A stretch of 37,442 bases of DNA from Patescibacteria group bacterium (GTDB lineage: Bacteria; Patescibacteriota; Doudnabacteria; UBA920), in NCBI GenBank assembly GCA_035628335.1, contig DASPKA010000048.1:1-37442 (forward strand), read 5' to 3'. Every line of letters starts with the position of its first letter. Positions within the stretch are counted from its first letter, which is position 1. The translations under genes and the position numbers were made by a program. The notes under the pieces were generated by a model. That model was not told the DNA's origin and searched no databases. It saw only the letters and a list, made by a program, of their open reading frames with translations. This document shows positions 5,581-27,734 of the stretch, piece by piece.

Positions 5581-7740
5581 ATGCTGACTCTGACAAGTGC
5601 TCAAAAAATTTCACTCTTAAACCAGACTACGCTCAAGTGCTTTAGCACGCCGGACAAAACTCTTATTGCAAAACATTTTACTCGTTCCGCCTTAAAAATT
5701 TTGGGCGGTGATTTTGGATTTATGTGGTTCAAAGACAGATCTGGCGACTACTCTTTGGCATATAAATCCCCAAACCTTCCATATAACCCTATCCCCCCAC
5801 GTAAACACGGCATCAACAAACGAGCAGACAAAACCCGAAACCCGCAGTACCTAGAGAAAATTCCCTATCAAGACACAAAGTATGATGTTTCTGCATACAT
5901 GTCTAGCTTTGTAATAATTCCAATAACCTACCAGAATCGCATGTATGGTAATGCTGTAATCTGTTTTAAAAAACCCAAAAAATTTTCCGCTGAAGACAAA
6001 AGTCTCTGCGTCGCAGTAGGCAATGCAATCGCCCAGGCCTTGACCATCAACCGCCTTGTAGGGTCGCTCGCTGGGTACAAAAAAATAATTGACAGTACCT
6101 CTGAGGCGCTGCTAGTGTTAGACCCACAAACAAAAGCTGTTCTGTACTGTAACCCAGCAAGTCAAAGGTATGCACCTGAAGGGAAGACTCACGCTGACAC
6201 TCATATTAGCGAGATTTTTTCTTCGCTTAACATGGAAATGCTTTCAGCTGCTATTAAAAAAACCTTACAAGAAAATACCCGTCAGGAGTTTGAATCAACC
6301 ATAACAAACCCACAACGTACGGTGCTTCAAATTGCCATTGAGCCACTACGAAACTCGCCCTGGGGTACTGTTGTTGTGCTATTGGTTCACAATATTACGG
6401 AACGCAAAAAAACATTTCAGAAAATTAAGCGACTAGCATACTACGACCGCCTGACAAGTATGCCCAACCGTATGCACTTTGAAGAGGACTTAGTAGCTGA
6501 AGTAGAAACGGCTCGCAAAAACAGCCAGACGTTCTCACTCATCCTTATAGACTTGGACCGGTTTAAGTTTATTAACGATTCTCTCGGCCACCGAGAAGGT
6601 GACAGAGTGCTTCAGGAAACTGGCAAGCGGCTGAAAAAATGTATACGTTCATCTGACAGTGCGTACCGAATAGGTGGCGATGAGTATGCCATAATCATAC
6701 GCGACCAAAACTCGAAACAAGCAGCGGTTACTGTATGCGAAACCATACTCCGACTCCTTGAAATGCCTATGGAAGTAGGTGCACATGAAGTGTACTCCAC
6801 CGCATCTATTGGACTCGGATTTTACCCAACTGATGGAAAAGATTTTGACACATTGCTACGCCACACAGACTATGCATTGTACTTAGCAAAAGAGGCAGGA
6901 GGCAACACCTATATGGGGCTTCCGCTGAACTCCACAGATGTCAAACCCCAAGACAATTGGCAGCTAGACGCTGACCTTCGCAAAGCAATATCACGAAACG
7001 AATTCGTATTTTACTACCAACCTATTTTTACCCTCTCAGAGCCACACACTACAACCCAACTAGAAGCCATACTCCGTTGGAATCACCCTAAGCGGGGTCT
7101 TGTGATGCCGGTTGCGTTTCATAAGTACTTAGAGGCCTCAGGGTTAATTGTGGGTTTAACCGAATGGCAGTTTAATCAGGCGTGTGAAATGATACTCAAT
7201 CTGAGAGCGGTAAAGTTAGAAATTCCTATTTGTATAAATATTTCTGCGCGTCAACTATTGCAACAAAACTTTTTTCAGACAGTCACCTTCACGCTGCAAA
7301 AGCATGACATTGACCCCTCACTTATAAAGCTCGAACTTACAGAAACACTGTTGATAAAGAACTTAGAAGCCTCTCAAGAACTGCTTGCGAAATTTAGGAG
7401 TCTTGGATTTAGGGTAATGGTTGATGACTTTGGCACGGGGTATGCCTCGCTCAATTACCTTAAGGACCTTCGGGTAGACGGGATAAAAATCGATCGTTCG
7501 TATATTCAACATATTCATAAAAGTCCAATGGACCTTGCTATTGTGCGCGCGCTTATTTTTCTCTGCACGGAATCAGGTCTAGAGCTCGTAGCGGAAGGCG
7601 TGGAAACAACCCAACAAAAAGACATTTTGCTTAACGCAGGTGCAAACCTTGCACAGGGATACCTATACAGTGAGCCACTTGCAGCTGAAAAGTGTATTGA
7701 AATGATCACGAAAAAGAACAAGAAAAAAACCCGGGAGTAA
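5581..7740 (+). CDS. GAF-PAS-GGDEF-EAL cyclic-di-GMP signalling protein
   Basis: GGDEF domain: YYDRLTSMPNR...LILIDLDRFKFINDSLGH..GD...RSSDSAYRIGGDEYAII (GGDEY variant with RxxD five residues upstream). EAL domain: YYQPIF...LEAILRW...ELTE...DDFGTGYASLNYL...KIDRSYI...AEGVET..QGYLYSEP. Confidence 0.9.
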   Translation: MLTLTSAQKISLLNQTTLKCFSTPDKTLIAKHFTRSALKILGGDFGFMWFKDRSGDYSLAYKSPNLPYNPIPPRKHGINKRADKTRNPQYLEKIPYQDTKYDVSAYMSSFVIIPITYQNRMYGNAVICFKKPKKFSAEDKSLCVAVGNAIAQALTINRLVGSLAGYKKIIDSTSEALLVLDPQTKAVLYCNPASQRYAPEGKTHADTHISEIFSSLNMEMLSAAIKKTLQENTRQEFESTITNPQRTVLQIAIEPLRNSPWGTVVVLLVHNITERKKTFQKIKRLAYYDRLTSMPNRMHFEEDLVAEVETARKNSQTFSLILIDLDRFKFINDSLGHREGDRVLQETGKRLKKCIRSSDSAYRIGGDEYAIIIRDQNSKQAAVTVCETILRLLEMPMEVGAHEVYSTASIGLGFYPTDGKDFDTLLRHTDYALYLAKEAGGNTYMGLPLNSTDVKPQDNWQLDADLRKAISRNEFVFYYQPIFTLSEPHTTTQLEAILRWNHPKRGLVMPVAFHKYLEASGLIVGLTEWQFNQACEMILNLRAVKLEIPICINISARQLLQQNFFQTVTFTLQKHDIDPSLIKLELTETLLIKNLEASQELLAKFRSLGFRVMVDDFGTGYASLNYLKDLRVDGIKIDRSYIQHIHKSPMDLAIVRALIFLCTESGLELVAEGVETTQQKDILLNAGANLAQGYLYSEPLAAEKCIEMITKKNKKKTRE

Positions 7741-10208: not shown

Positions 10209-13200
10209 ATGCCACTCAACCAAAATATTTTCAAAACGAGGCTCACATTAGTATCTTTTTTTCTTATTGCCACGCTCACTTTTTCCGGGCTGATGCAGAC
10301 TGTATACGCGGACACTGAACCAACACAGGAGGCAATGCAAGAGTTGCTTAATGAAATGGGCAGCAGTACACCGACGGCGCCACCAGGGAATACAGGAACA
10401 AGTTCACCAGAGATGCTGGAAACTGGAACCGCGACTCAAGAAACAGTTCTGGGAACTAGCGGTACTAGCACTTCTGAGGATTATGAAGCTCCTACTACAC
10501 AAGCCCCTAGGTTAGATGGGTGTATGACAGACCTTACTAACTATGGCACCTCACCTACTACAGGCACCGCAACTATCCCAAGCACCTCAGGCACTACCAC
10601 TCCTGAGCAGCCTTGTTTAGGGGGAGGTACAATTTCCGTAACAGACAACAGCTCAGGGACTGTTACCGTACAAAATAACACGGAGCTCCACATCATAAAC
10701 ACAAACGACATTGACGTAACCACAAACGTTGACACACTCGGGAACAGCGGTAATAACACCATCTCTGCCGGAGACGACATGAATAATGGAACGATCGAAA
10801 CTGGAAATATAAACATCTTTGCAAATGTGCTCACAGTTGCAAACAATAATATGGTTAACTCAGACATCGTACAGACTGTCCAAAACTTTAACACCCTCTC
10901 AACCTCCCTGTTCTTAAACCAAATCGAATCTGCACCTGAAGTAGTAGCGCAGGACCTGGTAACTGGAATGTGCGGAACCGCTCAACAAACAGTGGACGAT
11001 GACTCCACGCTTGACCTTAACTGCCAAAGCTACAGCCTCTTCCAGCTTACTAACAACAATACGGCCAATGTGCAAAACGATGTGTCCGGTTTGGGTCTCT
11101 CGGGCCAAAACCTTCTTTCAGCAGGTGATGGTATTAATAATTCAAATATAAAAACTGGAAATGTGAATGCGGTGGTTAATGTTATTAACTTTGTAAACAC
11201 CAACCTGGTTAACTCCCGACTTACCGTAGTAAACTTCAATGTGTTTGGTACATGGACAGGCGACTTAGTTATGCCTTCCCACTTATTCTTCGAACATGCC
11301 ATGACCGTAGGCAATTCTGCAGCTGCTGATCTCTCCTCTGTTTCAGAAGTAATTTTCAACATTGAAAATGAAAACGAAGCTGACATTACTAACAACATAA
11401 ATACTGGTGCAGGGTCTGGAGACAACCAATTGCTCGCTATGGGCACCAATAGTGATGTTAGAGCCAGCACTGCAGAAAGTGGGGCAGCAGCGAGCGGCTC
11501 AAATGTACAAAACATTGCCAACACAAACATAGTAAACGGTAAATGGTATCTTGGGCTTGTAAATATGCTTGGCAACTGGTCAGGTAACGTTTACTCCCTG
11601 CCTGGATTAGTGGCCATGGCTACCACGACCACAGGGCTCTCGTTCTTTGCTACAAACGCTGCTAACGCTGATGGAAGCTACCAAGCATTCTCAGAATCGC
11701 TTGCAAACATTAACAATCAAAGTACGGCCACTATAGATATACACAACCAAAATGACGCCACAGTCACAAACAATGTTGACCTTACCTCCTATACCGGCGG
11801 CAATGCTATAGCAGCGGGGGATGATGTAAAAAACTCAGCAATTTTTACCGGAAACAGTAAAGCCCTGGCCAACATATTAAACTTCGTAAATACCAATTTG
11901 ATTTCTGCTGATGTACAAGTAGGCATGATAAACATTTTTGGCCAATGGAACGGCAACATCACTTTTGGCTACCCTGACCTTGGAATAACTCAAACCGCAA
12001 CTCCGCCTATATTCCCAAACACACCGGGACAAACAGAACAAATTACTTTGTCGTATAAAAACACAGGGGATGGGTATATGAAAGACACGGAAATAGAATG
12101 GCACTATGACGCAAGTGCAATGAAGCCGCTGAACATAGGTACATACAATGGAACCATAACGCAGCCGGGCATAGCATTCTTCCCGCTCGGCCAAGTTATG
12201 CCCGGACAAAACGGAAATTTGCAATTAACCATTGAAAGCCTGAAAACTTTTACAGTTAACTCAACCGTGGATTCGTATGCCCGAATCTTTGGTAAAGGAC
12301 CGGAAATAAATATACTTAATAACGAGTCCCTACTACACTTACCAGTCTTGGCATTTGCTGGAACAACAACCAGCCCGGGAACCAGCACATCGCCTGGCAC
12401 GAGCACGCCTCCTGGTAATCCACCGCCAACTGGCGGAGGTGGAGGTGGAGGAGGAGGTGGCGGAAGTGTTGGTGGGGGAACACCTACCACAGGCCTCGTA
12501 ATAACCAAAGTCAACAACGCAATTGGGACAAAACATGCTGGAGATGTGATTACGTTCACTGTTAGCATAGACAACTACCTGCCGCATGCAGTTACGAATC
12601 TTGTGGTCTATGACACACTACGCGCGCCAGATGGGAGTGTAGTAATAACCAGAGAAATACCTATTCAAACCCTAAACCGCGGAGACGGTGCTGATATTTC
12701 ATACGAACTCCGTGTTACACAAAACGCACCTTCTGGTACATATGTAAACTCAGCATACGCAGAAGGCTTAGATGCAACGTTGCAGCCGGTGCGGAGCACC
12801 AATACAGCAACTAGTTCGTTTGTAGTAGACCGCGCTGGCGGACCCGGTGGCGGCGCGGGAGGCGGAGGTGGGGGGTCTACGGGCGGACCCGGTGGCGGCA
12901 CTGGGACCTCGACACCACCTTTTGAAGAAGTTGGAGGAACTAGCGAAGGCGGGATCAGTTTAGTTGGTACCAGTACCCCGGTAACACCGCAAGTCTTAGG
13001 CGTAGGAGCGACAGCAAGTCCATACGAAGGTAAACTTATCTGCATTCGTGGATCAAAAACTACCTACCTTGTCCAAGACGGACAGCTGCGGCCCATTACA
13101 CTCCAAGTATTCCAACAAAGAAAATACTCATTTAAAAATGTAAAAGTTATTAGTAAGGCGGAAGCGGCTGGATTAGAAATAGGCCCCCTGCTTCCTCCCA

Positions 13201-13385
13201 CTAACGCTACGCTAGTTAAGACATCTGCTAAAAAAGACAAGACACTGTACTGGACTATGGATGGACTCCTCCACCCTATTAACTATGGCTACTACATTGC
13301 CCACAATTTAAAAAAGCATCGCCTGTTTACGCTTAACGAAAGAGACTTAAAATCAATGCCATTAGGAGATGCCCTCATACAATAA
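10209..13385 (+). CDS. Large secreted surface protein (1058 aa): Thr/Ser/Pro-rich linker, four copies of the family repeat, two DUF11/CARDB-like domains, poly-Gly linkers and a C-terminal twin repeat
   Basis: N-terminal signal/anchor LTLVSFFLIATLTFSGLMQTVYA. Repeats: NSGNNTISAGDD, LSGQNLLSAGDG, GSGDNQLLAMGT, YTGGNAIAAGDD. DUF11-like segments: ITKVNNAIGTKHAGDVITFTVSIDNY...NLVVYDTL and TPGQTEQITLSYKNTGDG. Linkers: PGTSTSPGTSTPPGNPPPTGGGGGGGGGGGS and GGPGGGAGGGGGGSTGGPGGGTG. Confidence 0.85.
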   Translation: MPLNQNIFKTRLTLVSFFLIATLTFSGLMQTVYADTEPTQEAMQELLNEMGSSTPTAPPGNTGTSSPEMLETGTATQETVLGTSGTSTSEDYEAPTTQAPRLDGCMTDLTNYGTSPTTGTATIPSTSGTTTPEQPCLGGGTISVTDNSSGTVTVQNNTELHIINTNDIDVTTNVDTLGNSGNNTISAGDDMNNGTIETGNINIFANVLTVANNNMVNSDIVQTVQNFNTLSTSLFLNQIESAPEVVAQDLVTGMCGTAQQTVDDDSTLDLNCQSYSLFQLTNNNTANVQNDVSGLGLSGQNLLSAGDGINNSNIKTGNVNAVVNVINFVNTNLVNSRLTVVNFNVFGTWTGDLVMPSHLFFEHAMTVGNSAAADLSSVSEVIFNIENENEADITNNINTGAGSGDNQLLAMGTNSDVRASTAESGAAASGSNVQNIANTNIVNGKWYLGLVNMLGNWSGNVYSLPGLVAMATTTTGLSFFATNAANADGSYQAFSESLANINNQSTATIDIHNQNDATVTNNVDLTSYTGGNAIAAGDDVKNSAIFTGNSKALANILNFVNTNLISADVQVGMINIFGQWNGNITFGYPDLGITQTATPPIFPNTPGQTEQITLSYKNTGDGYMKDTEIEWHYDASAMKPLNIGTYNGTITQPGIAFFPLGQVMPGQNGNLQLTIESLKTFTVNSTVDSYARIFGKGPEINILNNESLLHLPVLAFAGTTTSPGTSTSPGTSTPPGNPPPTGGGGGGGGGGGSVGGGTPTTGLVITKVNNAIGTKHAGDVITFTVSIDNYLPHAVTNLVVYDTLRAPDGSVVITREIPIQTLNRGDGADISYELRVTQNAPSGTYVNSAYAEGLDATLQPVRSTNTATSSFVVDRAGGPGGGAGGGGGGSTGGPGGGTGTSTPPFEEVGGTSEGGISLVGTSTPVTPQVLGVGATASPYEGKLICIRGSKTTYLVQDGQLRPITLQVFQQRKYSFKNVKVISKAEAAGLEIGPLLPPTNATLVKTSAKKDKTLYWTMDGLLHPINYGYYIAHNLKKHRLFTLNERDLKSMPLGDALIQ

Positions 13386-13476: not shown

Positions 13477-13905
13477 TTAAAGAATTTCTGTGATCTGGAC
13501 TCTGGGGCCGAGGGTGTGCTTGCAGCAGTAATTACCTAGAAATTTCCCGCCTATCACAACGGTAAATCCTAATACCATAACGATTACGCTTTCTAAGGCA
13601 CTCTCAACCTCCCCAAAGAGCAACTTTGCCCATACACCGCTCCCTAAGGCAAATGCTGGTAACATGAGCCCAAGCACAACAAGGATGATCCCAAGGAGAT
13701 TGCTTGGAAAGAGCCCTCGATCATCAAGGCTCTCCAGAATTCCAACCTGGAAGCCAGGTAGGAAATTTAAAGCCACAAGCCCCACTACAGACATAGTGGC
13801 ACCCCCTGTCCCACCAAGCTGGGCCAACTTCCAGTCAAGAAAACCAAACGCCACACCTGTTCCCATCCATGCCAGTAAACTCATAAGCCATTTCACAACT
13901 TTCAT
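13477..13905 (-). CDS. Small polytopic membrane protein (142 aa), tandem paralog 2
   Basis: Start moved to ATG 13903-13905 (SD ggagaa). GVAFGFLDWKLAQL...ALNFLPGFQ resembles GFSFGVLDWLLPQL...ALNFLPVAQ in the upstream gene. Confidence 0.7.
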   Translation of the reverse strand: MKVVKWLMSLLAWMGTGVAFGFLDWKLAQLGGTGGATMSVVGLVALNFLPGFQVGILESLDDRGLFPSNLLGIILVVLGLMLPAFALGSGVWAKLLFGEVESALESVIVMVLGFTVVIGGKFLGNYCCKHTLGPRVQITEIL

Positions 13906-13918
13906 GTTTTCTCCGTCT

Positions 13919-14344
13919 TTATGTTTGATGTTTGCCCAGCTCCTCATAAGGAGGTTCTGGGCTTACCAGGTTTGCGATGAGAGTGCCGAATTTGGCGCCG
14001 AGCCACATGGTCAGCATCGTGGGGATCAACGCAAGCACCCACCTGAATCCTACCACTGAGCCGAACAAGAGCGGAATCCACACTGCCCAGCCTACCAGAA
14101 GCGAGGCTAGCATGAAGATAACGGCGAAGAAACCTTCGCCGGCCTTACTTGGTGGAAACTTCCCTTTGGTAACCAGCAAATCCAAGAAGGTAGTCTGGGC
14201 CACGGGAAGAAAATTCAATGCGAACAAGGCAGCTACGTACTGTGCTGTGCCAGAGAACAGTTGCGGCAAAAGCCAGTCCAGCACTCCGAAGCTGAACCCA
14301 GCCACAACCCACACGAAAAACCTCACAATCGAATACTCTTTCAT
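13919..14344 (-). CDS. Small polytopic membrane protein (141 aa), tandem paralog 1
   Basis: SD aaaggag. About 4 hydrophobic segments. Paralogous to 13477-13905. Confidence 0.7.
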   Translation of the reverse strand: MKEYSIVRFFVWVVAGFSFGVLDWLLPQLFSGTAQYVAALFALNFLPVAQTTFLDLLVTKGKFPPSKAGEGFFAVIFMLASLLVGWAVWIPLLFGSVVGFRWVLALIPTMLTMWLGAKFGTLIANLVSPEPPYEELGKHQT

Positions 14345-14412: not shown

Positions 14413-15285
14413 CTATCGGGAAAATGTAGCGGTAATATAGCTCGTGGTTTCTATATACGGGTCTTTGAGTATTCTGCCCGAGTTTGTGTTACCTAAAAGC
14501 GTAAATTTTGTTGTTTTAAATTCTTGCATAAGACGGAGCAGAACATAGATACTCGGTGGAGAGTCCATGTAGTCATTATTTGAATTCATAATAGATTTTA
14601 AAGAAAAGCTCTTAATCCATGCCAGGGTCTTTGCATCATTTGCTTCGGCAACAGAGGAGCTTAAATAGTGAGAAAAATCTACAGAAGCTATATACACTGT
14701 TTCTTCTGTATCCAGTTTTTTTACTTTTGAAATAAATCGTTCCAGTTCTTCTACCGAAGCATACCTACGTATCATAAATGATCTGACAGTGGCCTTAGGC
14801 AAGTAAGTGCGTATATATGGCATCATTCCGGAAAGGCTATGTTCGTTCTCAGCGTGTTCAAGCTTTGCAGGAGCAAAAATGTTCTCAGGTGATGAATTCA
14901 CATACACCTGGCCAAAGGGAGTAAGCCAGTTAAATGTCGCGTGCTGAATAGAGGCTGTTCCGACTTCATGATGGTTAGGACCAATAAGTACAACGGTACG
15001 CGGACGTGCCTGTACTAAAGTCTGAAAAGCTTCAGACAGCATAGTAGAAGGAAGCAGGTGGTGGGGGACTATAAGTCCTTTAATTCCAGATATAGTCCGA
15101 CAACATCCATTTTTCTTTACTTCAGCCTTTCCCTGTTCAAAAAGTAATGGGTCAAAAAACTTTACAAGTACCAAGGGCACGTTATCTGCATGTTGGATCT
15201 TTACTGCTGCAAAGTGAAAAAACCCAGCACAAATCAGGCTAAAAACTACGGTAACCAAGGTTAATTCTTTATAAAAAATCACCAT
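14413..15285 (-). CDS. Memo-like protein (AmmeMemoRadiSam system protein B family) with N-terminal membrane anchor
   Basis: Family motifs in order: GLIVPHH, VVLIGPNHH, ENEHSLSGMMPYIRTYLP, ASVDFSHYL. The N-terminus LVTVVFSLICAGFFHFAAV is hydrophobic. Confidence 0.75.
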   Translation of the reverse strand: MVIFYKELTLVTVVFSLICAGFFHFAAVKIQHADNVPLVLVKFFDPLLFEQGKAEVKKNGCCRTISGIKGLIVPHHLLPSTMLSEAFQTLVQARPRTVVLIGPNHHEVGTASIQHATFNWLTPFGQVYVNSSPENIFAPAKLEHAENEHSLSGMMPYIRTYLPKATVRSFMIRRYASVEELERFISKVKKLDTEETVYIASVDFSHYLSSSVAEANDAKTLAWIKSFSLKSIMNSNNDYMDSPPSIYVLLRLMQEFKTTKFTLLGNTNSGRILKDPYIETTSYITATFSR

Positions 15286-15599: not shown

Positions 15600-15648
15600 A
15601 AGCCATCTTGTCCCGGTGTAGCAAAACAAGATGGCTTTTATTTTTTTA
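15600..15648. terminator. Bidirectional terminator between convergent genes
   Basis: aagccatcttgt (15600-15611)/acaagatggctt (15626-15637) is a 12-bp stem followed by tta-ttttttt. It overlaps the A2M stop codon. Confidence 0.75.
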
Positions 15649-18600
15649 CATTGGCTCTGCAGGTTTACCTTTCTGTATGTAACTCAGAAGTTTTACTTGC
15701 CATTCAGGGTTATGAAGCAGAACGAGGTAGAATATGAGGATGATAAGAATAATTGAACCGACAATACTCTTCCAACCTATACCCTCTTCAGTTACTCTAG
15801 TAAAGCTGAAAGCGCGTTCTGCATATGGTGGCTCAATATGGAACACTTGAGAGCCAGAATGTGCTGACTTGCCCGTGTACATAGTTTCATACATTACCGG
15901 AGGCGCTGTAAAGTCACCAGAGACAACCGCACGTGCTTGGTAGGAGTACTCCCGTTGGGACCCTCCACCATACCCCCAGTCATACATTTGTGAAATCCGC
16001 GCGCCTTCTAACGTAGTTTCGGCCCCCCAGTCTCCGTAGTAATAATGTTGTGAGTATCCGCCAGTCTTTTCGTTGAGCAAATTCTTATTAACCGGTATTA
16101 ACCCTGCGGGAAGTCGGTCTTCAATTACCGCGTAATCTGAAGACAGATCACCGCTTACTTTAATTTTTACATTTACTATATCTCCTACGCGGACCGCCCA
16201 ACCTTCATGCTCCGCATTTTCATATGTTCGTTCAAACTTTATCTTGGAAGAAACTGGGACTTTGTCTACATCAGTTCGCCACAGGCTTTCAACCAGCATG
16301 GAGTACAATGTACCTCCATTTGAAGCTACAGAAAGCTTACTTCCGTCAAGCGCAGGATCAATTTTTAGAGGAACAACAACTTCAGCTGTGGGGCTAGTAA
16401 TGTTGCCAGTGGCAAGCGTCTGAGAACCAAGCGTTACTGTGTACCCTGTATTTACTTTCGTACTTCCATCACTCGACTTTAGCAACGCAGAAACAACCTG
16501 GACTGTAGTATATGTGCTTACCCAGTAGTTCCTTTTCTTTTTCTGCGCCAGGAAGTTTAGAGCCTGAACAATTTGGTTCTTGTACCTGTCCTTCTGCTGC
16601 AACAAAGACTTTACCGCAAAAGCTGTGGATGCTTCTTCGCTCCCATAGTACACCCCAAGACCTGTTTTCCAGTGCATACTTGAACCTTCAGAGATTCCTT
16701 GTTTGAGCAACTCAGCATTCAATACATCTGCCTGTGCCGTGAAGCCATTCAATCGGTTAGTCATTGCAGCCATTGCCAACGTGTCTGGAGTTACGCCCGT
16801 CACATCTGTGATGGGGAACTTGTCTAGTCCGCTACCCAACAGCGCAAGCCCGTATGCTCGTAAAATTATGTTGGTCTTCTTTTCATATTCCGCTACCTCT
16901 TTCTCTGTTCTAACCCCGTCGTACCCAAACGTTGGGTAGTACGATGGGTTGTAGTTATGTATTTCAGTAGCAGAGTTTTCCAGATAGCTGCGTGCAGAAC
17001 GTAGCAGTGGTGTAGCTTCAGAAAAACCACGTGCTTCTGCGAGTTTCAAATACTCGACAACATATACTGTGTTAAACACATTTCCGTACCCGTCGTGCCA
17101 GTAACCCCAGGAGCCGTTAGGGTTTTGCAGTTCTTTAAGCTTAGAAATACCCACGCGCACCATATCATTAAGGTCTTTGCCTTCTGAGGCTTCCTTCAAA
17201 ATTTCAGGGTAACCCTGAGCAAGTAATACAGGAGCAAACCGACTCATGGTCTGTTCAACACAACCATACGGATAGTCGATTAAGTACCGCATGGCTTCTG
17301 GCACCTGTCCTACCATAGAAGCAGTTAAGACAAGCTTCGCCTTAGATAAATCATTAACCGCATCTTTTGGAAAACGGACAGTGAAGTCACCACTACCTTC
17401 CTTAATTTCTGAAACAAGTTCTTTTACTCCCGTATACCGAACTGGCAGTACTTGTTTGTATGAGTCAGAAAGCTTCTTGTCTTTTGTATCTGTGGCGTTA
17501 AACTGAAACTCTGCTGCTTCGCTCGCTTGGGTAGGTGTAACTTCAAACTCCAAAAGTTTAGACTTTTTATTTTGAAGTGCAACATGTTCACCCTGGATTG
17601 GAAGCACTTTTTTGCCTTCATAGGTTACATCTGCATTTATATCCAGTTCCTTACCAGAGTAGTTGCTTATATACGCAGCCAAAACAACTTTGTCTCCAAC
17701 CCGCAGTACATTTGGAACAATAGGTCGCATTATAAATGGCTTGGTGACCACGATCTCATTTTTTGTTTCACCAACCTGAGTTGCTGCATTCGCGGATACT
17801 GCCCGTATAACCCATGTTGTTAAATTGTCAGGCAACTTAAAAGTAACTGTGGCTTTACCATCCGCTCCAGTTACCACATGAGGGTTCCAGTAGGCAGTGT
17901 CTTTAAAGTTAGAGCGCACTGCTGTATCTCCCTTGTCGTTATGCGCAAGTATATGGCCTGCAAAGAAGTTATGTGTATTGGCAACAGTTAAGTTATATAC
18001 AGTCACCTCGCCCAAAACCCATTCTAACGACTCGACTGGGGCTGGACCTTTTTCTGTGAGCAATACATCACCAATTTGCAAATCACCCGCCGGTTTCCAT
18101 GCACCGCTTTCATAAAGCAAGTGGTTTGGTGTCACTTTGAGACTTCCGTTAATGAGTAGGTACCCCATATCTGACAACCTATGCGTTGCGGTAACCTTCT
18201 GAGAAACATATTTCCTGGCAGACTCGTCATATGACAAAACACTGTCTCCAACTAAAATGTCTTCTATATTTTTTACTGTACCCTCCGTAAGGGTAACCTT
18301 TGTACCAGCTACGAAACACCCGCCTCGCTCTGCACCACTGCTGTATGACTGCATGAGGCTATGGCGGTATGCAGTGTTTTGTCCTCGCTTAGAATAAAAG
18401 GAGTCAAAAATATGTTGCCTATTTTCAGTTGCAAGCTCATATATTGCTTTGTCTATAGAATAGAGCACTGTGTCAGCAGACACTGGCTTGCCGTTTTGAT
18501 CTGTCGTCACTACAGTTGCCCGTACATTGTCTCCTGGTCCGTAACTCTGTTTGTCAGTCTGTACTGAAACATTCAGCTTTTGTCCTAACGCAGAAACCTC

Positions 18601-20748
18601 AGCTTCAGCTGTAGTTGATCTTAAGTCGTAAGGACCAAACTCGTACCCTCGGGCAAAGATGTTTGGCATATAACTCCCTTCAACTGGGAATTCAGCCACT
18701 GCACGTCCGCCCGTTACCCGTACCACTTTGTAGTCCTTTACATAGTCACGCTCAATGACTAACAAGGCGTCATGGTCAGGTAGATTAGAGGTAAACTGAA
18801 GACGCATAGTTGCGTTCGGTTGGTAGGTTTGCTGGCTAAAAGCTAACGTCACACCTGCTTGCGTGTCCTGCTGTGACCACCAGAAGTCATACTCTCCACC
18901 AGAAACCCACTGGTTATATACAACACTGAAGTCTTTACCTGAAGTGTCTTTTCCAGTAAGAGTAAATGTATACGACCCTGATACCTGAGGGGTAAAGTTA
19001 TATGCAATTTTTCCAGAGTTATCGGAAATGAATTTTTGCGCCTTATAGTCTTCTGAGGTGCCTTTCCAGTCGCCGTTAACATACCCATGGCTCTCTCTGT
19101 GCACTTGCATAGTGACAGGTACATCAGGCAATGTTTTTCCCGCAAGGTCTGAGACCGTAAATACATGGTTGATAGGTTTTCCAGCAACGGCATAGTACCA
19201 ACCGTAGGTTGAACCAGCAATTGTTCTAGTAATCTTTATATTATTCTTTCGCACAAGCGCGCGGCTCATGGTTACGACCTGGTTTTGGGTGCGGTCTTTG
19301 TACGTAGCTTCCACAGAAATTACTTTTGCTGTTGTGCCTTCCGCAGACTCAGCAAAGTCTACTTGAGGCATATCTAACAACAGCTCTCCGTTTTCGTTTA
19401 ATCTTGCCGTACCTGAACCAACTTCATTACCACCGTAAAAGTAGTAATTAAGCTCATCTTCGCTGTCGCCATAATACCAGTTGTTATACACATCGTTAGT
19501 ATAAATGTGGTAACTTACTTCTTGGTCAGCAAGCGGGGGACCAAAAAAGTACTGGCCGGAAATCTTTGCTGTAATTTTTTCTGAAGCCGCATACGACATA
19601 CGGTCAAAAGAAGAGTCTAGTGTGTATTCTGGCTTACGGTACTCTTCAATCTGAACCGAAGTGTAATTCCCATAATTCCAATTATTATTTTCATTACTAG
19701 CTTGGTCTTGTATGGAGATCTGGAAATAACCAGTGCCCGAGTCTTTAGGTATAACCAACTTTCCAGCAACTGTACCATCCTTGGCTATTGTACTTGTCTG
19801 CTGTACTAGAGCCTCTCTCTCGCTCCAGTCTTTAAAGAGTTTAACATGCACAACACCGGACGGGAGTGTATACGCACCGTCATCGTCGTCACGGATAATT
19901 GCTTTGTAAGAAATAGTATCCCCTGGCTTGTATATAGGGCGGTCGGTTATAAAGTAAAATTTGCGAGAATTAAAGGTCGAACCAAAAGAACCAGTGAAAT
20001 TATAGTACGCGGTGCGAATATTGACTGGGATAAGGTTCATGTCACTTTCTGTCTCCACCAACACAAGCTCGGCGTTCGTGGAAATAGGCATGAAGCCTAG
20101 GTTGTTGTTCGAGACTGTAGCCTTACCTGTTTCCTTCGCTGCATCTTCAAAGGTATAAGCGGTTACGGTATAATCTTTTACCGTAGTACCTGTCTTAAGG
20201 TCCTGCACCCAGAACATATAGTCATCCTTTGTTTCCGTCATGACAGCTGCGTTTCTGGAACGGACAATAAAAGCACGGTCTATTGCACCGTCAGTAACCG
20301 TTTCAACTATATACACCGCGCTTTCTTTCAGTGGAAGCGTTATTTTGCCTTCGTTCTTTTTTAGATCTACGGTATTCTCAAATACCTTCACTGAACGGCT
20401 GTAGTCAGGTTTCGGAAACTTTCGTTTACTATTGTCTTTGCCGTCGTAAATCAAATACTTAAACAAGTCTTCTTTTGTAACTTCGTACAGGGAAAGTTTA
20501 ACCAGAGGACTCTTAGGTTCACTGTACCCGTAGTCGCCATTGTACATTAACTGAACCTCAGGCGCAGCGGCTGCGGACATAGGGATGATTTCAGACGAAG
20601 CCTGGTACTCTCCTCCGCTAATGAAGATCCGAGGTCCCTGCTGCACCTCATTAGGCGTTACAGCCTGGCTTGGATGAAAATAGAAAAAGGCAGCCACTGA
20701 CAAACCCAGCAGCACACTACTAAATAGAAATTTTCTTATGGTTAACAT
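15646..20748 (-). CDS. Alpha-2-macroglobulin family protein with thioester motif, internal Hint (intein-like) domain, N-terminal signal/anchor and C-terminal TM helix (1700 aa)
   Basis: Thioester motif YPYGCVEQTMSRF (GCVEQ = nt 17251-17265). A2M-family strand KLPDNLTTWVIRAVSAN. Long beta-rich MG-like N-terminal half. N-terminal FLFSSVLLGLSVAAFFYF and C-terminal IVGSIILIILIFYLVLL. Confidence 0.9.
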   Translation of the reverse strand: MLTIRKFLFSSVLLGLSVAAFFYFHPSQAVTPNEVQQGPRIFISGGEYQASSEIIPMSAAAAPEVQLMYNGDYGYSEPKSPLVKLSLYEVTKEDLFKYLIYDGKDNSKRKFPKPDYSRSVKVFENTVDLKKNEGKITLPLKESAVYIVETVTDGAIDRAFIVRSRNAAVMTETKDDYMFWVQDLKTGTTVKDYTVTAYTFEDAAKETGKATVSNNNLGFMPISTNAELVLVETESDMNLIPVNIRTAYYNFTGSFGSTFNSRKFYFITDRPIYKPGDTISYKAIIRDDDDGAYTLPSGVVHVKLFKDWSEREALVQQTSTIAKDGTVAGKLVIPKDSGTGYFQISIQDQASNENNNWNYGNYTSVQIEEYRKPEYTLDSSFDRMSYAASEKITAKISGQYFFGPPLADQEVSYHIYTNDVYNNWYYGDSEDELNYYFYGGNEVGSGTARLNENGELLLDMPQVDFAESAEGTTAKVISVEATYKDRTQNQVVTMSRALVRKNNIKITRTIAGSTYGWYYAVAGKPINHVFTVSDLAGKTLPDVPVTMQVHRESHGYVNGDWKGTSEDYKAQKFISDNSGKIAYNFTPQVSGSYTFTLTGKDTSGKDFSVVYNQWVSGGEYDFWWSQQDTQAGVTLAFSQQTYQPNATMRLQFTSNLPDHDALLVIERDYVKDYKVVRVTGGRAVAEFPVEGSYMPNIFARGYEFGPYDLRSTTAEAEVSALGQKLNVSVQTDKQSYGPGDNVRATVVTTDQNGKPVSADTVLYSIDKAIYELATENRQHIFDSFYSKRGQNTAYRHSLMQSYSSGAERGGCFVAGTKVTLTEGTVKNIEDILVGDSVLSYDESARKYVSQKVTATHRLSDMGYLLINGSLKVTPNHLLYESGAWKPAGDLQIGDVLLTEKGPAPVESLEWVLGEVTVYNLTVANTHNFFAGHILAHNDKGDTAVRSNFKDTAYWNPHVVTGADGKATVTFKLPDNLTTWVIRAVSANAATQVGETKNEIVVTKPFIMRPIVPNVLRVGDKVVLAAYISNYSGKELDINADVTYEGKKVLPIQGEHVALQNKKSKLLEFEVTPTQASEAAEFQFNATDTKDKKLSDSYKQVLPVRYTGVKELVSEIKEGSGDFTVRFPKDAVNDLSKAKLVLTASMVGQVPEAMRYLIDYPYGCVEQTMSRFAPVLLAQGYPEILKEASEGKDLNDMVRVGISKLKELQNPNGSWGYWHDGYGNVFNTVYVVEYLKLAEARGFSEATPLLRSARSYLENSATEIHNYNPSYYPTFGYDGVRTEKEVAEYEKKTNIILRAYGLALLGSGLDKFPITDVTGVTPDTLAMAAMTNRLNGFTAQADVLNAELLKQGISEGSSMHWKTGLGVYYGSEEASTAFAVKSLLQQKDRYKNQIVQALNFLAQKKKRNYWVSTYTTVQVVSALLKSSDGSTKVNTGYTVTLGSQTLATGNITSPTAEVVVPLKIDPALDGSKLSVASNGGTLYSMLVESLWRTDVDKVPVSSKIKFERTYENAEHEGWAVRVGDIVNVKIKVSGDLSSDYAVIEDRLPAGLIPVNKNLLNEKTGGYSQHYYYGDWGAETTLEGARISQMYDWGYGGGSQREYSYQARAVVSGDFTAPPVMYETMYTGKSAHSGSQVFHIEPPYAERAFSFTRVTEEGIGWKSIVGSIILIILIFYLVLLHNPEWQVKLLSYIQKGKPAEPM
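17938..18318 (-). other. Hint / mini-intein-like domain (aa 811-937 of the A2M ORF); +1 residue is Asp
   Basis: CFVAGTKVTL (block A; Cys codon 18316-18318), KVTPNHLL (block B, TxxH), VYNLTVANTHNFFAGHILAHN (blocks F/G; Asn codon 17938-17940). The next codon, 17935-17937, is gac = Asp. Confidence 0.85.
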
Positions 20749-20844: not shown

Positions 20845-21546
20845 TTATTTACTGGCTGTAATCCTCGCCTCCTCAACGCGCGGCTTAAAAAAATTCGTGA
20901 TTCTGAGAGTTGCCTCATCCGCGAATTGAACCTTCTGCTCAAGTGTATTCACTTCTGTCATGTACAGAAGCTTCAGCAATTGAGGTTCTTTCCCAACCCA
21001 TTCCGCTACATGCGGTATATGGTCTAGGACTACATCCCGTATAGTTTCAAGCAACTCCGCCTGCCCAGGATACTTCGCTCCCGGGTTAAAGATAATTTGC
21101 ACCAGTCCTTGCTCTCCGAGGGTTTGAACAGGTCGGGTGCCGTCTGGCGAAGGTGGAAGCTTAAGGGAGCGCTTAACAATGTCTGCAGCCATGTCATATA
21201 TTTCAATGACTTGCTGCTTCCGGTCTCCCTCAACAATTCCCTTGTTGATGTACACAATCTTATCACGCACGCTGCAGACTACCAACCGCTCAAACAGCAA
21301 CCCGAGATCAAGCGCGGTTGACATCTCTACAATAGGGTCAGCCTTGGGGCTTAGGCCATCTTTTTCCTTTGCAAGCTCCCTGAGAAGCCACCCGAGCGAC
21401 GGCTTCTTTGACTTCTGCAGCGCCTGAATTTCGCTCTTGAACATCCTTGAAGAAGGGTTCTGCTTTTCCTTCAAGATGTCTTGAGAAAGACCATGCAGTG
21501 TAAGCAGCGCGCATAGCATCAGTACAACTAACAACAGCTGTTTCAT
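20845..21546 (-). CDS. Secreted hypothetical protein (233 aa)
   Basis: Signal peptide MKQLLLVVLMLCALLTLHGLSQ. SD aaggag. Confidence 0.7.
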   Translation of the reverse strand: MKQLLLVVLMLCALLTLHGLSQDILKEKQNPSSRMFKSEIQALQKSKKPSLGWLLRELAKEKDGLSPKADPIVEMSTALDLGLLFERLVVCSVRDKIVYINKGIVEGDRKQQVIEIYDMAADIVKRSLKLPPSPDGTRPVQTLGEQGLVQIIFNPGAKYPGQAELLETIRDVVLDHIPHVAEWVGKEPQLLKLLYMTEVNTLEQKVQFADEATLRITNFFKPRVEEARITASK

Positions 21547-21989: not shown

Positions 21990-22430
21990 TCAAAAACAAA
22001 GATTAGGAAAACGTTTACATTTCGTTTTCTGTTTCTCCTTTGCAGTCTTCCACTGGAATGTAATTCCAGCCTGATTTCCTCTGTCTGGGACACGAGGAAC
22101 ACTCGGCATGGATGGGGCTTGTCTACTCACCGGTTGAACGGTGAGGAAGGTGTCTACCTTCTCGCCCTCACGCAGCCGACCGCCAAACCAGGGCTTGGTC
22201 TTAAACTTCTGTACCCCACTTCGCTGCTCTCCAGCAGTTGTGGAAACAGTATCTAAGACAAACCCAGGAACACTCCGGACTTCACGTACGTCCTTTGAAA
22301 GTGGCTTGGACTGATCTATTGCCTTGTGAGGACCAGTCTGACTAGATACAGGAGGAAGCACTGTTTGTGCTAGACCCGGACCTGCCAGTACTATTAAAAC
22401 AACAACTACAATCCCTACGAGCTTGAACAT
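21990..22430 (-). CDS. Secreted hypothetical protein (146 aa)
   Basis: Signal peptide MFKLVGIVVVVLIVLAGPGLAQ. SD aaaaggag. Confidence 0.6.
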   Translation of the reverse strand: MFKLVGIVVVVLIVLAGPGLAQTVLPPVSSQTGPHKAIDQSKPLSKDVREVRSVPGFVLDTVSTTAGEQRSGVQKFKTKPWFGGRLREGEKVDTFLTVQPVSRQAPSMPSVPRVPDRGNQAGITFQWKTAKEKQKTKCKRFPNLCF

Positions 22431-22516: not shown

Positions 22517-23236
22517 TTACCTGTACCGCTCTCGCGCGCTTCTGAAAAAGGACGACACTTTGATTGCGGCTTTGCCAGCCATCTCCAGGGTCTGCTCTTC
22601 GTTCTGCGGTCGCTGAAAGCCCACACTCTCTGCCACACCCGGTTTTGTGAAAGAAGACATTACGATAGGAATGGCGTCGATCGTTTCAGCTTCAGACCGT
22701 TCGAGTAAACGTACGTAAGCCTCGGGAGCTACGTCTGGCAACTTGTTGTTCCCCATAAAAATATTGAACAACTCGCTGCGGGCCAGGATATCCTTGTCCG
22801 TTTTGTTGCTTTCGGCCCAAATCCTGACGCCCAAGCTGTAGATTTCAAGAAACAATTCCTTCTGTCCTGGCTTGAGCGTTGTGTAATACTGTGGAACCAA
22901 CAGTGCCGGCTCCTTGGCATTTGCAAGTCCCTTCACCACCTCATTCATGAATAGAAGAAGTGAGATCCCTCCGTAAATCCCCGACCTTGACTCGGGCACG
23001 ACTTTGATCTCATACTGCTTGATAGCACTCATCATCAGCTTTGTCCTTTTCTTTGGATCTATAGCCTTTCCCTTGCTCCCCGAAAGCGATGCCATCGTCT
23101 GCTTCCAGTGAATTTCTAAGTCTTTCTGAAAAGACTTTGTCGTGACCACGCCAGTCTTGTCGGGCTTGTCCTTCACAGGACACGCACAGAGTAAGAGGAC
23201 ACCGACTGCCAGCAAACTAACAGATAACTTTTTCAT
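22517..23236 (-). CDS. Putative lipoprotein (239 aa)
   Basis: MKKLSVSLLAVGVLLLCAC has a lipobox-like L-C-A-C. No recognisable domain. Confidence 0.65.
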   Translation of the reverse strand: MKKLSVSLLAVGVLLLCACPVKDKPDKTGVVTTKSFQKDLEIHWKQTMASLSGSKGKAIDPKKRTKLMMSAIKQYEIKVVPESRSGIYGGISLLLFMNEVVKGLANAKEPALLVPQYYTTLKPGQKELFLEIYSLGVRIWAESNKTDKDILARSELFNIFMGNNKLPDVAPEAYVRLLERSEAETIDAIPIVMSSFTKPGVAESVGFQRPQNEEQTLEMAGKAAIKVSSFFRSARERYR

Positions 23237-27659: not shown

Positions 27660-27734
27660 GGTGCCCGTAGTTTAATGGTAGAACGCAGCTCTGTGAAAGC
27701 TGTCGCGGGAGTTCGATTCTCCTCGGGCACCCCA
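27660..27734 (+). tRNA. tRNA-His (anticodon GTG) with encoded G-1 and CCA
   Basis: Hand-folded. Acceptor gtgcccg/cgggcac. G-1 (27660) lies opposite C73. D arm gttt-aatggta-gaac. Anticodon stem cagct/agctg with loop ctGTGaa. T arm gggag-ttcgatt-ctcct. 3' CCA at 27732-27734. Confidence 0.93.

Follow-up and report, generated by a model that had tools for sequence, protein, structure and literature searches.

A predicted bacterial intein-like domain in the bait region of an alpha-2-macroglobulin family of Patescibacteria

Bacterial intein-like (BIL) domains of type A are the closest described relatives of the element reported here; they are defined by a C-terminal flank without a nucleophile and by a host protein that is exported or displayed on the surface. 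The element is a Hint domain of 127 amino acids (aa) within a 1700-aa alpha-2-macroglobulin (A2M) encoded by a Patescibacteria group bacterium (assembly GCA_035628335.1, contig DASPKA010000048.1, positions 1 to 37,442; this whole stretch of 37,442 nucleotides is called the window). Judged by its sequence, the segment is an A-type BIL that is predicted to be catalytically competent and that lies within the Gly-rich C-terminal portion of the bait, and we consider it likely that it is an active BIL-type autoprocessing domain in the A2M bait region and a conserved trait of its family.

The BIL of Clostridium thermocellum (Protein Data Bank, PDB, 2LWY) and the domain in the window have in common an N-terminal Cys (Cys1), a TxxH motif in block B, a 'VYN' motif in block F, a His-Asn end, the lack of an endonuclease and a length of about 130 aa. 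The +1 residue of 2LWY is non-nucleophilic as well, and such domains occur in exported or surface proteins. The Hint of the window is only about 29% identical to 2LWY and differs from it in having a new host and a new site, the bait region of an A2M, and in its flanks, which are strictly conserved among the A2M-embedded Hints (GG/CF and HN/[QDE]KG, the slash marking the end of the domain). Unlike the BILs that are scattered in hypervariable proteins, it is vertically inherited and ancestral in a whole clade.

Other Hint domains resemble it in part. The BIL2 domain of the BUBL1 locus of Tetrahymena thermophila (6Y75/6TMM) also has a Gly-Gly followed by the Cys at its N-terminal end, but it is eukaryotic and follows a ubiquitin-like domain, which becomes released or transferred, whereas the N-terminal flank here is the half of the A2M that holds macroglobulin (MG) domains MG1-MG6. 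Canonical mini-inteins (Ssp DnaB, 1MI8; Mtu RecA) share the fold (TM score of 0.77), Cys1, TxxH and HN; the A2M Hints differ from them by the absence of the +1 nucleophile in 98% of the family, by an exported host, by a site in a disordered linker and by an Asn in block F, where an Asp is usual. The pretoxin HINT (PF07591) is an autoproteolytic Hint of exported bacterial proteins, as the A2M Hint would be, but it precedes and releases a C-terminal toxin (PMC3482391), while no toxin follows the A2M Hint.

The host can be compared with the bacterial A2Ms ECAM (YfhM) and SaA2M, with which it shares MG domains, a bait-region domain, a CxEQ thioester, a thioester domain (TED), a bacterial MG10 domain (bMG10) and the ExMY motif. 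It differs from both by the absence of a lipobox and the presence of a C-terminal transmembrane anchor, by a Memo-like neighbour instead of an adjacent pbpC, and by a bait that is short, conserved and Hint-containing. Its overall identity to ECAM is low, and the RDDR motif of ECAM was not evident in the alignment. At the equivalent position, complement proteins C3, C4 and C5 also have a folded domain, the anaphylatoxin, and their chain is processed there into two; however, they are cut by furin or convertases and not by the inserted domain, and the anaphylatoxin is helical and unrelated to Hint. To our knowledge, members of the A2M family, C3, C4 and C5 included, are activated by a cut at one site, which is made by another protease in every characterised case. 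Here, a large and ancient bacterial clade keeps a domain of a self-cutting type, with all its catalytic residues intact, exactly at the A2M activation site.

The combination of a Hint or BIL domain with an A2M is probably, though not certainly, new to the literature. The initial annotation, made from the DNA sequence alone, had been aware of no description of it, and no paper was found in our search either: nothing turned up on a macroglobulin with a 'hint domain' or 'bacterial intein-like' domain, and, among 19 papers that combine macroglobulin and intein, the 15 listed were unrelated by title and abstract, in a literature of which the coverage was incomplete. Macroglobulins go unmentioned in a large survey of toxins with HINT domains (PMC3482391).

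The Hint domain and its site in the host protein

The reverse complement of positions 17850-18400 reads ...ERGG/CFVAGTKVTL...KVTPNHLL...VYNLTVANTHNFFAGHILAHN/DKGD and, with longer junctions, ...GAERGG/CFVAGTKVTLTEG...LKVTPNHLLYE...VTVYNLTVANTHNFFAGHILAHN/DKGDTAVRSNFKDTAYWNP. The codon of Cys811 is at positions 18316-18318 and that of Asn937 at 17938-17940, and the +1 codon at 17935-17937 is GAC (Asp938). Re-reading of the sequence bore out every coordinate and residue of the initial annotation, and its view that the insert is a complete, endonuclease-free Hint domain was upheld by Pfam, by the profile match to 2LWY, by AlphaFold2 and by Foldseek.

The best Pfam family on the whole protein was PT-HINT (PF07591; aa 822-935, E 7e-11, 42.9 bits for a cut-off of 27.7), and Hint (PF01079) scored 31.8 bits for a cut-off of 29.7. 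When the 127 aa were isolated, PT-HINT gave an E-value of 3.9e-12, Intein_splicing 36.6 bits (cut-off of 35.8), Hom_end_hint 33.4 bits (cut-off of 32.1) and the NCBIfam model intein_Cterm 21.0 bits (cut-off of 15.6). A profile of the family searched against the PDB matched 2LWY, annotated as a bacterial intein-like domain, best of all (E 7e-18), followed by the Tetrahymena BUBL1-locus BIL2 (6TMM/6Y75; E 7e-17); inteins came far lower (PI-MtuI, E 8e-8) and Sonic hedgehog was marginal (E 9e-5). An AlphaFold2 model of aa 621-1050, built on a 20-sequence alignment, had a mean predicted local distance difference test (pLDDT) of 78.8. In this model, the Hint segment is all beta-strand with block-mean pLDDT values of about 78-96, and the flanking stretches (aa 787-809 and 941-949) are below 50. 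Foldseek comparison of the Hint part with the PDB placed 6Y75/6TMM at the top (TM 0.81, E 2e-11, 30% identity) and also returned 2LWY (TM 0.84) and the DnaB mini-intein 1MI8 (TM 0.77), while the MG parts of the model matched C3, C4, A2M, CD109 and ECAM.

The insert is, by these profile and model comparisons, a minimal Hint without endonuclease whose nearest class is the BIL rather than the canonical intein, as the initial annotation had proposed. The Hint fold, the N-terminal Cys nucleophile and the block-B TxxH of the Hint superfamily are all present, as are the Cys1...His-Asn motifs, the non-nucleophilic +1 residue and the predicted exported or surface host of A-type BILs, which are also its closest matches in sequence and structure. 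The His-Asn end of canonical inteins was found, but the +1 Cys, Ser or Thr was not (Asp938), nor was there a homing endonuclease or its remnant, a sporadic distribution or an insertion at a conserved site. In contrast to the pretoxin HINTs, MG7-CUB-TED-MG10 and a transmembrane helix lie downstream of the domain and the next gene is Memo-like. The GG/CF junction recalls the Hedgehog-type (Hog) domain, but that domain has no terminal Asn cyclisation, whereas the A2M Hint closes with His-Asn and lacks the additional C-terminal region for sterol or adduct recognition.

Conservation was determined on a set of 147 A2M-embedded Hints. The N-terminal junction was G/C in all 147 (GGCF in 137, KGCF in 7, GGCL in 2 and SGCF in 1). 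Gly-1, Cys1, the block-B His and the terminal His-Asn were conserved in 100% of the set, and the block-B Thr and Asn919 in 99%. The +1 residue was Gln in 61 sequences, Asp in 44, Glu in 18, Gly in 14, Ser in 3, Lys in 3, Asn in 2, Leu in 1 and Ala in 1; Cys and Thr were never found, and the residue was thus non-nucleophilic here and in 144 of the 147, as the initial annotation had stated for the window. Position +2 was Lys in 142/147 and position +3 Gly in 134/147, while Arg945 and Asp950 were invariant. This pattern indicates that the residues for the N-S acyl shift at Gly810-Cys811 and for the cyclisation of Asn937 are under strict purifying selection. A canonical intein whose +1 codon carries a sequencing error was ruled out by the 147 homologues, and a chimeric assembly was ruled out by the finding of the same architecture in NCBI, JGI, ENA and Logan assemblies and in 21 GTDB species. 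Because the architecture recurs in 147 independent proteins, the Hint in the A2M goes far past what chance would give and is not a sequencing artefact.

The features of the locus are as follows (all on the minus strand; the source of each is in brackets).

15646-20748: A2M, a thioester-containing protein with embedded Hint, 1700 aa (translation of the open reading frame, ORF, and Pfam)
20662-20748: N-terminal signal peptide or signal anchor, aa 1-29, ...HPSQA/V (read from the sequence)
18433-18846: A2M_BRD Pfam region, aa 635-772, the MG domain before the bait (Pfam; alignable to ECAM through residue 922)
18319-18390: bait-like N-terminal linker, aa 787-810 (...KRGQNTAYRHSLMQSYSSGAERGG), closing in the invariant Gly-Gly at -2/-1 (pLDDT below 50; its 'RYN' corresponds to ECAM R923-Y924-G925)
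17938-18318: Hint/BIL domain, 127 aa, aa 811-937, with Cys811, Thr873-x-x-His876, Asn919 and His936-Asn937 (Pfam, NCBIfam, profile and fold)
17902-17937: C-terminal flank, aa 938-949 (DKGDTAVRSNFK), with +1 Asp, +2 Lys, +3 Gly and Arg945 (sequence; pLDDT below 50 for aa 941-949)
17638-17898: A2M Pfam domain, aa 951-1037 (...DTAYWNP...LPDNLTTW), the MG domain that follows the bait (Pfam; aligned with ECAM from 975 and human A2M from about 720)
16990-17316: TED, Pfam-matched part, aa 1145-1253 (Pfam, E 9e-11)
17251-17265: thioester motif GCVEQ, aa 1162-1166 (translation)
15874-16239: bMG10, the C-terminal MG domain, aa 1504-1625, with ETMY matching the ExMY of ECAM (Pfam and PDB alignment)
15715-15768: C-terminal transmembrane helix, aa ~1661-1678, followed by a basic tail (hydropathy scan)
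14413-15285: Memo-like gene (PF01875), directly downstream of the A2M gene (Pfam)

The position of the insert was compared with the bait of known A2Ms. In the phmmer search of the PDB, the end of the Hint aligned to human A2M at about 720 and residue 938 to C4 768; the former position closes the human bait (690-728), and at the latter the alpha' chain begins after C4a. A profile hidden Markov model (HMM) of 21 family members was aligned to E. coli K-12 YfhM/ECAM (NC_000913): HMM positions 84-791 corresponded to ECAM 194-922 and positions 962-1624 to ECAM 975-1648, leaving ECAM 923-974 unaligned opposite the insert. An HMM from which the Hint had been deleted reached only ECAM ~925, where the 'RYN' of the family corresponds to ECAM R923-Y924-G925. 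In ECAM, Arg923-Leu942 are disordered following elastase cleavage, Arg956, Gly958 and Asn963 are the residues of the cleaved bait that bind the C-terminal MG domain, and this domain carries the ExMY motif (Fyfe 2015, PMC4498604).

The alignment confirmed that the Hint sits within the A2M bait region, where the initial annotation had placed it, and no evidence was found for an insertion elsewhere. The site is homologous to that of other baits and its linkers are predicted to be disordered, but it is short, conserved and Hint-occupied. The short 'bait' of the Hint-bearing clade (HSLEGI....AEGGG) is conserved, while distant A2Ms (Chloroflexota, Bipolaricaulota and bins labelled Thermotogae) have a low-complexity bait of 90-115 aa at the same place. 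The suggestion of the initial annotation that the Hint replaces the bait was not sustained: the domain is inserted in the Gly-rich C-terminal part of a short bait, which Hint-less sisters share (AEKGGGGGD..R). By eye, ECAM RFGGDGDELKR956 is similar to the AEKGGGGGDGGGR of Hint-less relatives, and its GGDGDELKR to their GGGGGDGGGR, in that a Gly-rich stretch is followed by an Arg; this by-eye match of GGDGD...R weakly suggests an insertion point near ECAM 949/950, with Arg945 corresponding to ECAM Arg956.

The host is a genuine member of the thioester A2M superfamily by its series of MG domains and its CxEQ-containing TED. The Pfam matches to MG2 (aa 263-353), A2M (PF00207) and bMG10 were all above the gathering score. 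ECAM, SaA2M, TEP1, human A2M and C3/C4/C5 were matched by phmmer with the protein of the window against the PDB; with the family profile, ECAM (E 2e-64) and SaA2M (E 1e-59) were matched, as were TEP1, human A2M and C3-C5. The GCVEQ motif begins 225 residues C-terminal to Asn937. In the alignment of 21 sequences its Cys, Glu and Gln never vary, and CxEQ is kept in 124 of 138 Hint-bearing relatives. Among the 21 family members scanned, most have a hydrophobic N-terminal signal or anchor and all have the C-terminal transmembrane helix and basic tail; reading of the N-terminus of the A2M in the window revealed no lipobox Cys. The protein is predicted to be exported by the Sec system, anchored by its C-terminal helix and displayed outside the cytoplasmic membrane, and, because Patescibacteria have no outer membrane, this location would be the cell surface.

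Distribution, inheritance and loss

A word-indexed protein search retrieved 19 full-length Hint-bearing homologues (28-35% identity) and one that cleanly lacked the Hint (P0021). In a scan of one genome per GTDB species, the Hint was found at the same site in 21 species, labelled WWE3, Daviesbacteria, Microgenomates, Moranbacteria, Levyibacteriota, Roizmanbacteria or 'Patescibacteria group' except for a few with labels of other taxa. A phmmer search of 1.84 billion cluster representatives gave 647 matches at E <= 1e-30, and among the best 150 of these at least 127 were new representatives (clusters at 50% identity) with a Hint between A2M flanks. These counts make the Hint in the A2M a conserved trait of a large family, mostly of Patescibacteria (candidate phyla radiation), as far as sequence comparison can tell. 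The database names of the proteins are only 'alpha-2-macroglobulin family protein' or 'YfaS'.

Some bins among loci L003, L004, L009, L010, L015 and L018-L021 are labelled Gammaproteobacteria, Nevskiaceae, Bdellovibrionales or Bathyarchaeia. Such labels are probably those of mislabelled or contaminated bins, horizontal transfer being an alternative. A subfamily of longer A2Ms (~2100-2300 aa; loci L015, L017, L019, L020 and L021, proteins P0249 and P0251) has an additional N-terminal region of ~570 aa; relative to F.DTAYW the site of the Hint is unchanged, although it falls at aa ~1250-1590, and the N-terminal flank of the Hint is KGGSGGG/CF.

The history of the domain was followed on a bootstrapped neighbour-joining tree of 1393 non-Hint columns, in which the Patescibacteria clade had 99-100% bootstrap support. 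Because the basal sub-clades (L016/P0238/P0231 and P0226/P0245/P0248/P0235) are Hint-bearing, the Hint is ancestral to the clade. The mean pairwise identity was 49% for the Hint and 37% for the rest of the protein, and the pairwise identities of Hint and host were correlated (r = 0.67), a co-divergence that argues for vertical inheritance. Hint-less proteins occur at three places: L053 outside a 60-member crown (87% support), P0256 in a three-member clade with two Hint-bearing proteins (93%), and P0229, P0233 and P0257 in a group of their own (73%). The tree thus indicates that the Hint was lost cleanly at least three times within the clade. The Hint-less forms read ...HSL.GI....AEKGGGGG[DG]..R..F.DTAYWNP and lack the +2 Lys; their Gly linker has about the length and composition that would be expected of a spliced product (AEGGG-[QDE]KG..R).

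The thioester has also been lost. Fourteen of the 138 Hint-bearing A2Ms lack the thioester Cys and have an intact Hint, among them P0198 (YPYAFEQ), P0190, P0204, P0216, P0218, P0231 and P0238. Loss of the thioester and retention of the Hint are therefore uncoupled, the catalytic residues being kept in 99-100% of the 147 Hints, and the fact that 10% of the proteins keep the Hint without a thioester argues that its role is not tied specifically to the arming of the thioester.

Processing outcomes and alternative explanations

The reaction that we propose would start after export and folding, when Thr873 and His876 would assist Cys811 in attacking the carbonyl of Gly810; this N-S acyl shift would form a Gly-Cys thioester. 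Asn937 would cyclise with the help of His936 and cut the C-terminal junction, and the two reactions together would excise the Hint. Since no usable nucleophile ever occurs at +1, the canonical transesterification route would be closed. Each half of the A2M contributes strands to one shared MG domain, which would keep the halves adjacent. The alpha-amine freed on residue 938 could then attack the thioester and re-join the chain by an aminolysis of the BIL type, which would give a single chain with a short bait (...AEGGG-[QDE]KG..R...) nearly identical to that of the natural Hint-less homologues. Alternatively, the thioester could be hydrolysed, which would give a two-chain A2M.

Excision with re-ligation as the main outcome is the possibility that we favour over cleavage alone, although we hold it tentatively and put it just short of an even chance. 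It is favoured because the flanks belong to one MG domain, which would keep the reacting ends close, because they are Gly-rich, because the expected product resembles natural Hint-less proteins and because repeated losses of the Hint seem to have done no harm. Ligation of the flanks without a +1 nucleophile is reported for the A-type BIL of C. thermocellum, for which the attack of the new alpha-amine on the thioester has reportedly been proposed as the mechanism, and A-type BILs with a non-nucleophilic +1 residue are said to splice by aminolysis as well as to cleave. The statement of the initial annotation that BILs cleave rather than splice was thus too strong, since by these accounts the missing +1 nucleophile alone does not predict cleavage. 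Cleavage alone is a less probable outcome but a serious contender. It is favoured because any cut in the ECAM bait triggers the conformational change (PMC4498604), because the segment that C-terminal cleavage would free seems to correspond to the one that engages the C-terminal MG domain, and because the PT-HINT relatives are releasing proteases (PMC3482391). The remaining outcomes, transfer to another amine or an inactive plug, are together unlikely.

Several points weigh against the proposal of an active autoprocessing domain and the history drawn for it. The activity of the Hint is deduced from conservation alone, and the ratio of ligation to cleavage is not a quantity that can be read from a sequence. 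The Hint is more conserved than its host, which could point to a role beyond its own removal. The crown of the neighbour-joining tree is poorly resolved, and the count of losses is a lower bound taken from three supported nodes. Finally, we know of no tested precedent for a +1 Gln, Asp or Glu with a near-invariant +2 Lys.

A more specific form of cleavage, that of a self-triggering A2M in which the Hint only cuts at the N-terminal junction, the C-terminal junction or both, and so replaces the attack by a foreign protease, appears somewhat unlikely. The cut would free ...KG..R945..FKDTAYWNP, the TED would swing out and the thioester would hit a nearby amine or hydroxyl, which could be on a trapped protein, on the wall of the cell itself or on a host-cell surface. 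In favour of this reading, the by-eye counterpart of the ECAM GGDGDELKR956 segment, which binds the C-terminal MG domain once cleaved (Fyfe 2015, PMC4498604), comes directly after the insert in the bait, and the ExMY of this domain is present as ETMY. The residues for both cleavages are invariant with no +1 nucleophile, CxEQ is retained in 90% of the members, the PT-HINT relatives are releasing autoproteases (Zhang 2012, PMC3482391) and the bait is short and conserved, unlike the 90-115 aa variable bait of Chloroflexota. However, the clean losses, at least three in number, gave single-chain proteins with a Gly linker among Hint-bearing sisters, so that a Hint essential for activation is unlikely; the proteins without a thioester Cys (14/138) have an intact Hint; and an unregulated self-cleavage would discharge the trap right after folding. 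The closest solved relative, moreover, is said to be able to ligate without a nucleophile. For these reasons the gating idea of the initial annotation is possible but not favoured. A controlled version, in which the Hint would be an internal trigger that cuts the bait, possibly under redox, pH or ligand control, is unlikely; it would make the A2M, instead of a passive protease trap, a self-arming surface thioester protein of the episymbiotic Patescibacteria with their wall-less periplasm, whose discharged thioester, and perhaps also the Gly-Gly thioester, would covalently tag their own envelope or the host cell.

The remaining explanations are much less probable. By analogy with Hedgehog and BUBL, the Hint could be a transferase whose N-terminal Gly-Gly-thioester would react with an amine, either external or of a side chain, such as Lys939, one in the cell wall or one on a target protein, so that the C-terminus of the N-terminal half of the A2M would become covalently attached. 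We consider this improbable, although GG/CF resembles the SGG/CF of Hedgehog and the ubiquitin-like RGG/C of Tetrahymena BUBL BIL2, the top structural match, and although Gly-1 (100%) and Lys+2 (97%) are conserved and the Lys is absent from the Hint-less relatives examined. The argument is purely one of analogy, no adduct-recruiting region accompanies the Hint, and a Lys also follows the Hint in tandem-Hint relatives (HN/K/CF), so that the Lys after His-Asn seems to be a trait of the Hint subfamily rather than an acceptor specific to A2Ms. Just as improbable, or slightly more so, is a degenerate, non-catalytic Hint that would either plug the site as a folded domain or itself be the bait, in the place of an anaphylatoxin (ANA), with linkers cut by foreign proteases. 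Its topological position is that of the ANA domain of C3/C4/C5, residue 938 corresponding to C4 768, presumably just past C4a, and the disordered linkers of ~23 and ~9 residues that flank it could be cut by proteases; against this, the catalytic residues of both junctions are 99-100% conserved at a mean identity of 49%, and Gly-1 and Lys+2 are conserved with them, which would not be expected of a plug with a structural role only. Hardly credible, finally, is an ordinary mobile mini-intein with canonical four-step splicing, in which the +1 Asp would be a sequencing or assembly error. Its Cys1, TxxH and HN are intein-like and the Intein_splicing and intein_Cterm models score just above their cut-offs, but the +1 residue of 144 of the 147 independent sequences effectively refutes it. 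The BIL is also the far better profile match (E 7e-18, compared with 8e-8 for PI-MtuI), the 127-aa all-beta model has no endonuclease or remnant, and the Hint co-diverges with its host. Inteins are typically found in conserved catalytic sites of cytoplasmic proteins, while here the host is exported to the surface and evolves fast, and the site is a disordered Gly-rich linker.

The outcome of the reaction determines what the family would offer. If the Hints cleave, these would be the first self-activating or self-maturing A2Ms and a genetically encoded model of the coupling between bait scission and thioester exposure; if, in addition, the Hint is the trigger, bacteria would have a convertase-free counterpart of C3b deposition. 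If they re-ligate, as we favour, they would be the largest natural set of nucleophile-independent splicing domains in one context (147; GG/C and HN/xKG), of use for the engineering of protein ligation and for understanding the persistence of BILs.

Gene neighbourhood and related Hint proteins

The Memo-like gene (PF01875), whose product has an N-terminal hydrophobic helix, lies directly 3' of the A2M gene and often overlaps it; the same pair was found in 13 related Patescibacteria loci, such as L009 (9138-10109) and L025 (8721-9563), the latter Hint-less. No Memo-like gene was found beside the A2M genes of Chloroflexota at the loci examined, and E. coli yfhM is paired with pbpC instead (NC_000913). 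A conspicuous surface protein and a conserved A2M-Memo pair are thus added to the sparse functional picture of Patescibacteria.

About 1 kb past the Memo-like gene, the opposite (plus) strand has an ORF of 1058 aa at 10209-13385, for which Pfam gave no match. The neighbouring ORFs at 13477-13947, 13919-14344, 20845-21546, 21990-22430 and 22517-23236 are likewise without Pfam match. The window also encodes a GAF-PAS-GGDEF-EAL signalling protein at 5581-7740 and a tRNA at 27661-27731 (both plus strand), as well as a RecQ helicase at 32263-34389 (plus strand) whose best named relatives, ~50% identical, are from the Parcubacteria group and Uhrbacteria; a divergent member of the Patescibacteria is accordingly the most likely source of the window.

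A word-indexed search with the Hint alone retrieved none of the A2M family, only 15 small proteins that are stand-alone Hints, and was uninformative for distribution. Proteins P0101-P0114 are stand-alone single-Hint proteins of 118-214 aa, mostly on short metagenome contigs and 31-44% identical to the Hint of the window over the full domain; the identity of 57% of P0113 covers just a third of the domain. Close relatives of the Hint also occur as tandem arrays in P0230, P0220, P0247, P0252 and P0253, with up to 10 matched stretches per protein, and in P0230, P0252 and P0253 successive Hints are separated by 1-5 residues (HN/K/CF, HN/KGG/CF and HN/KGGGG/CF).

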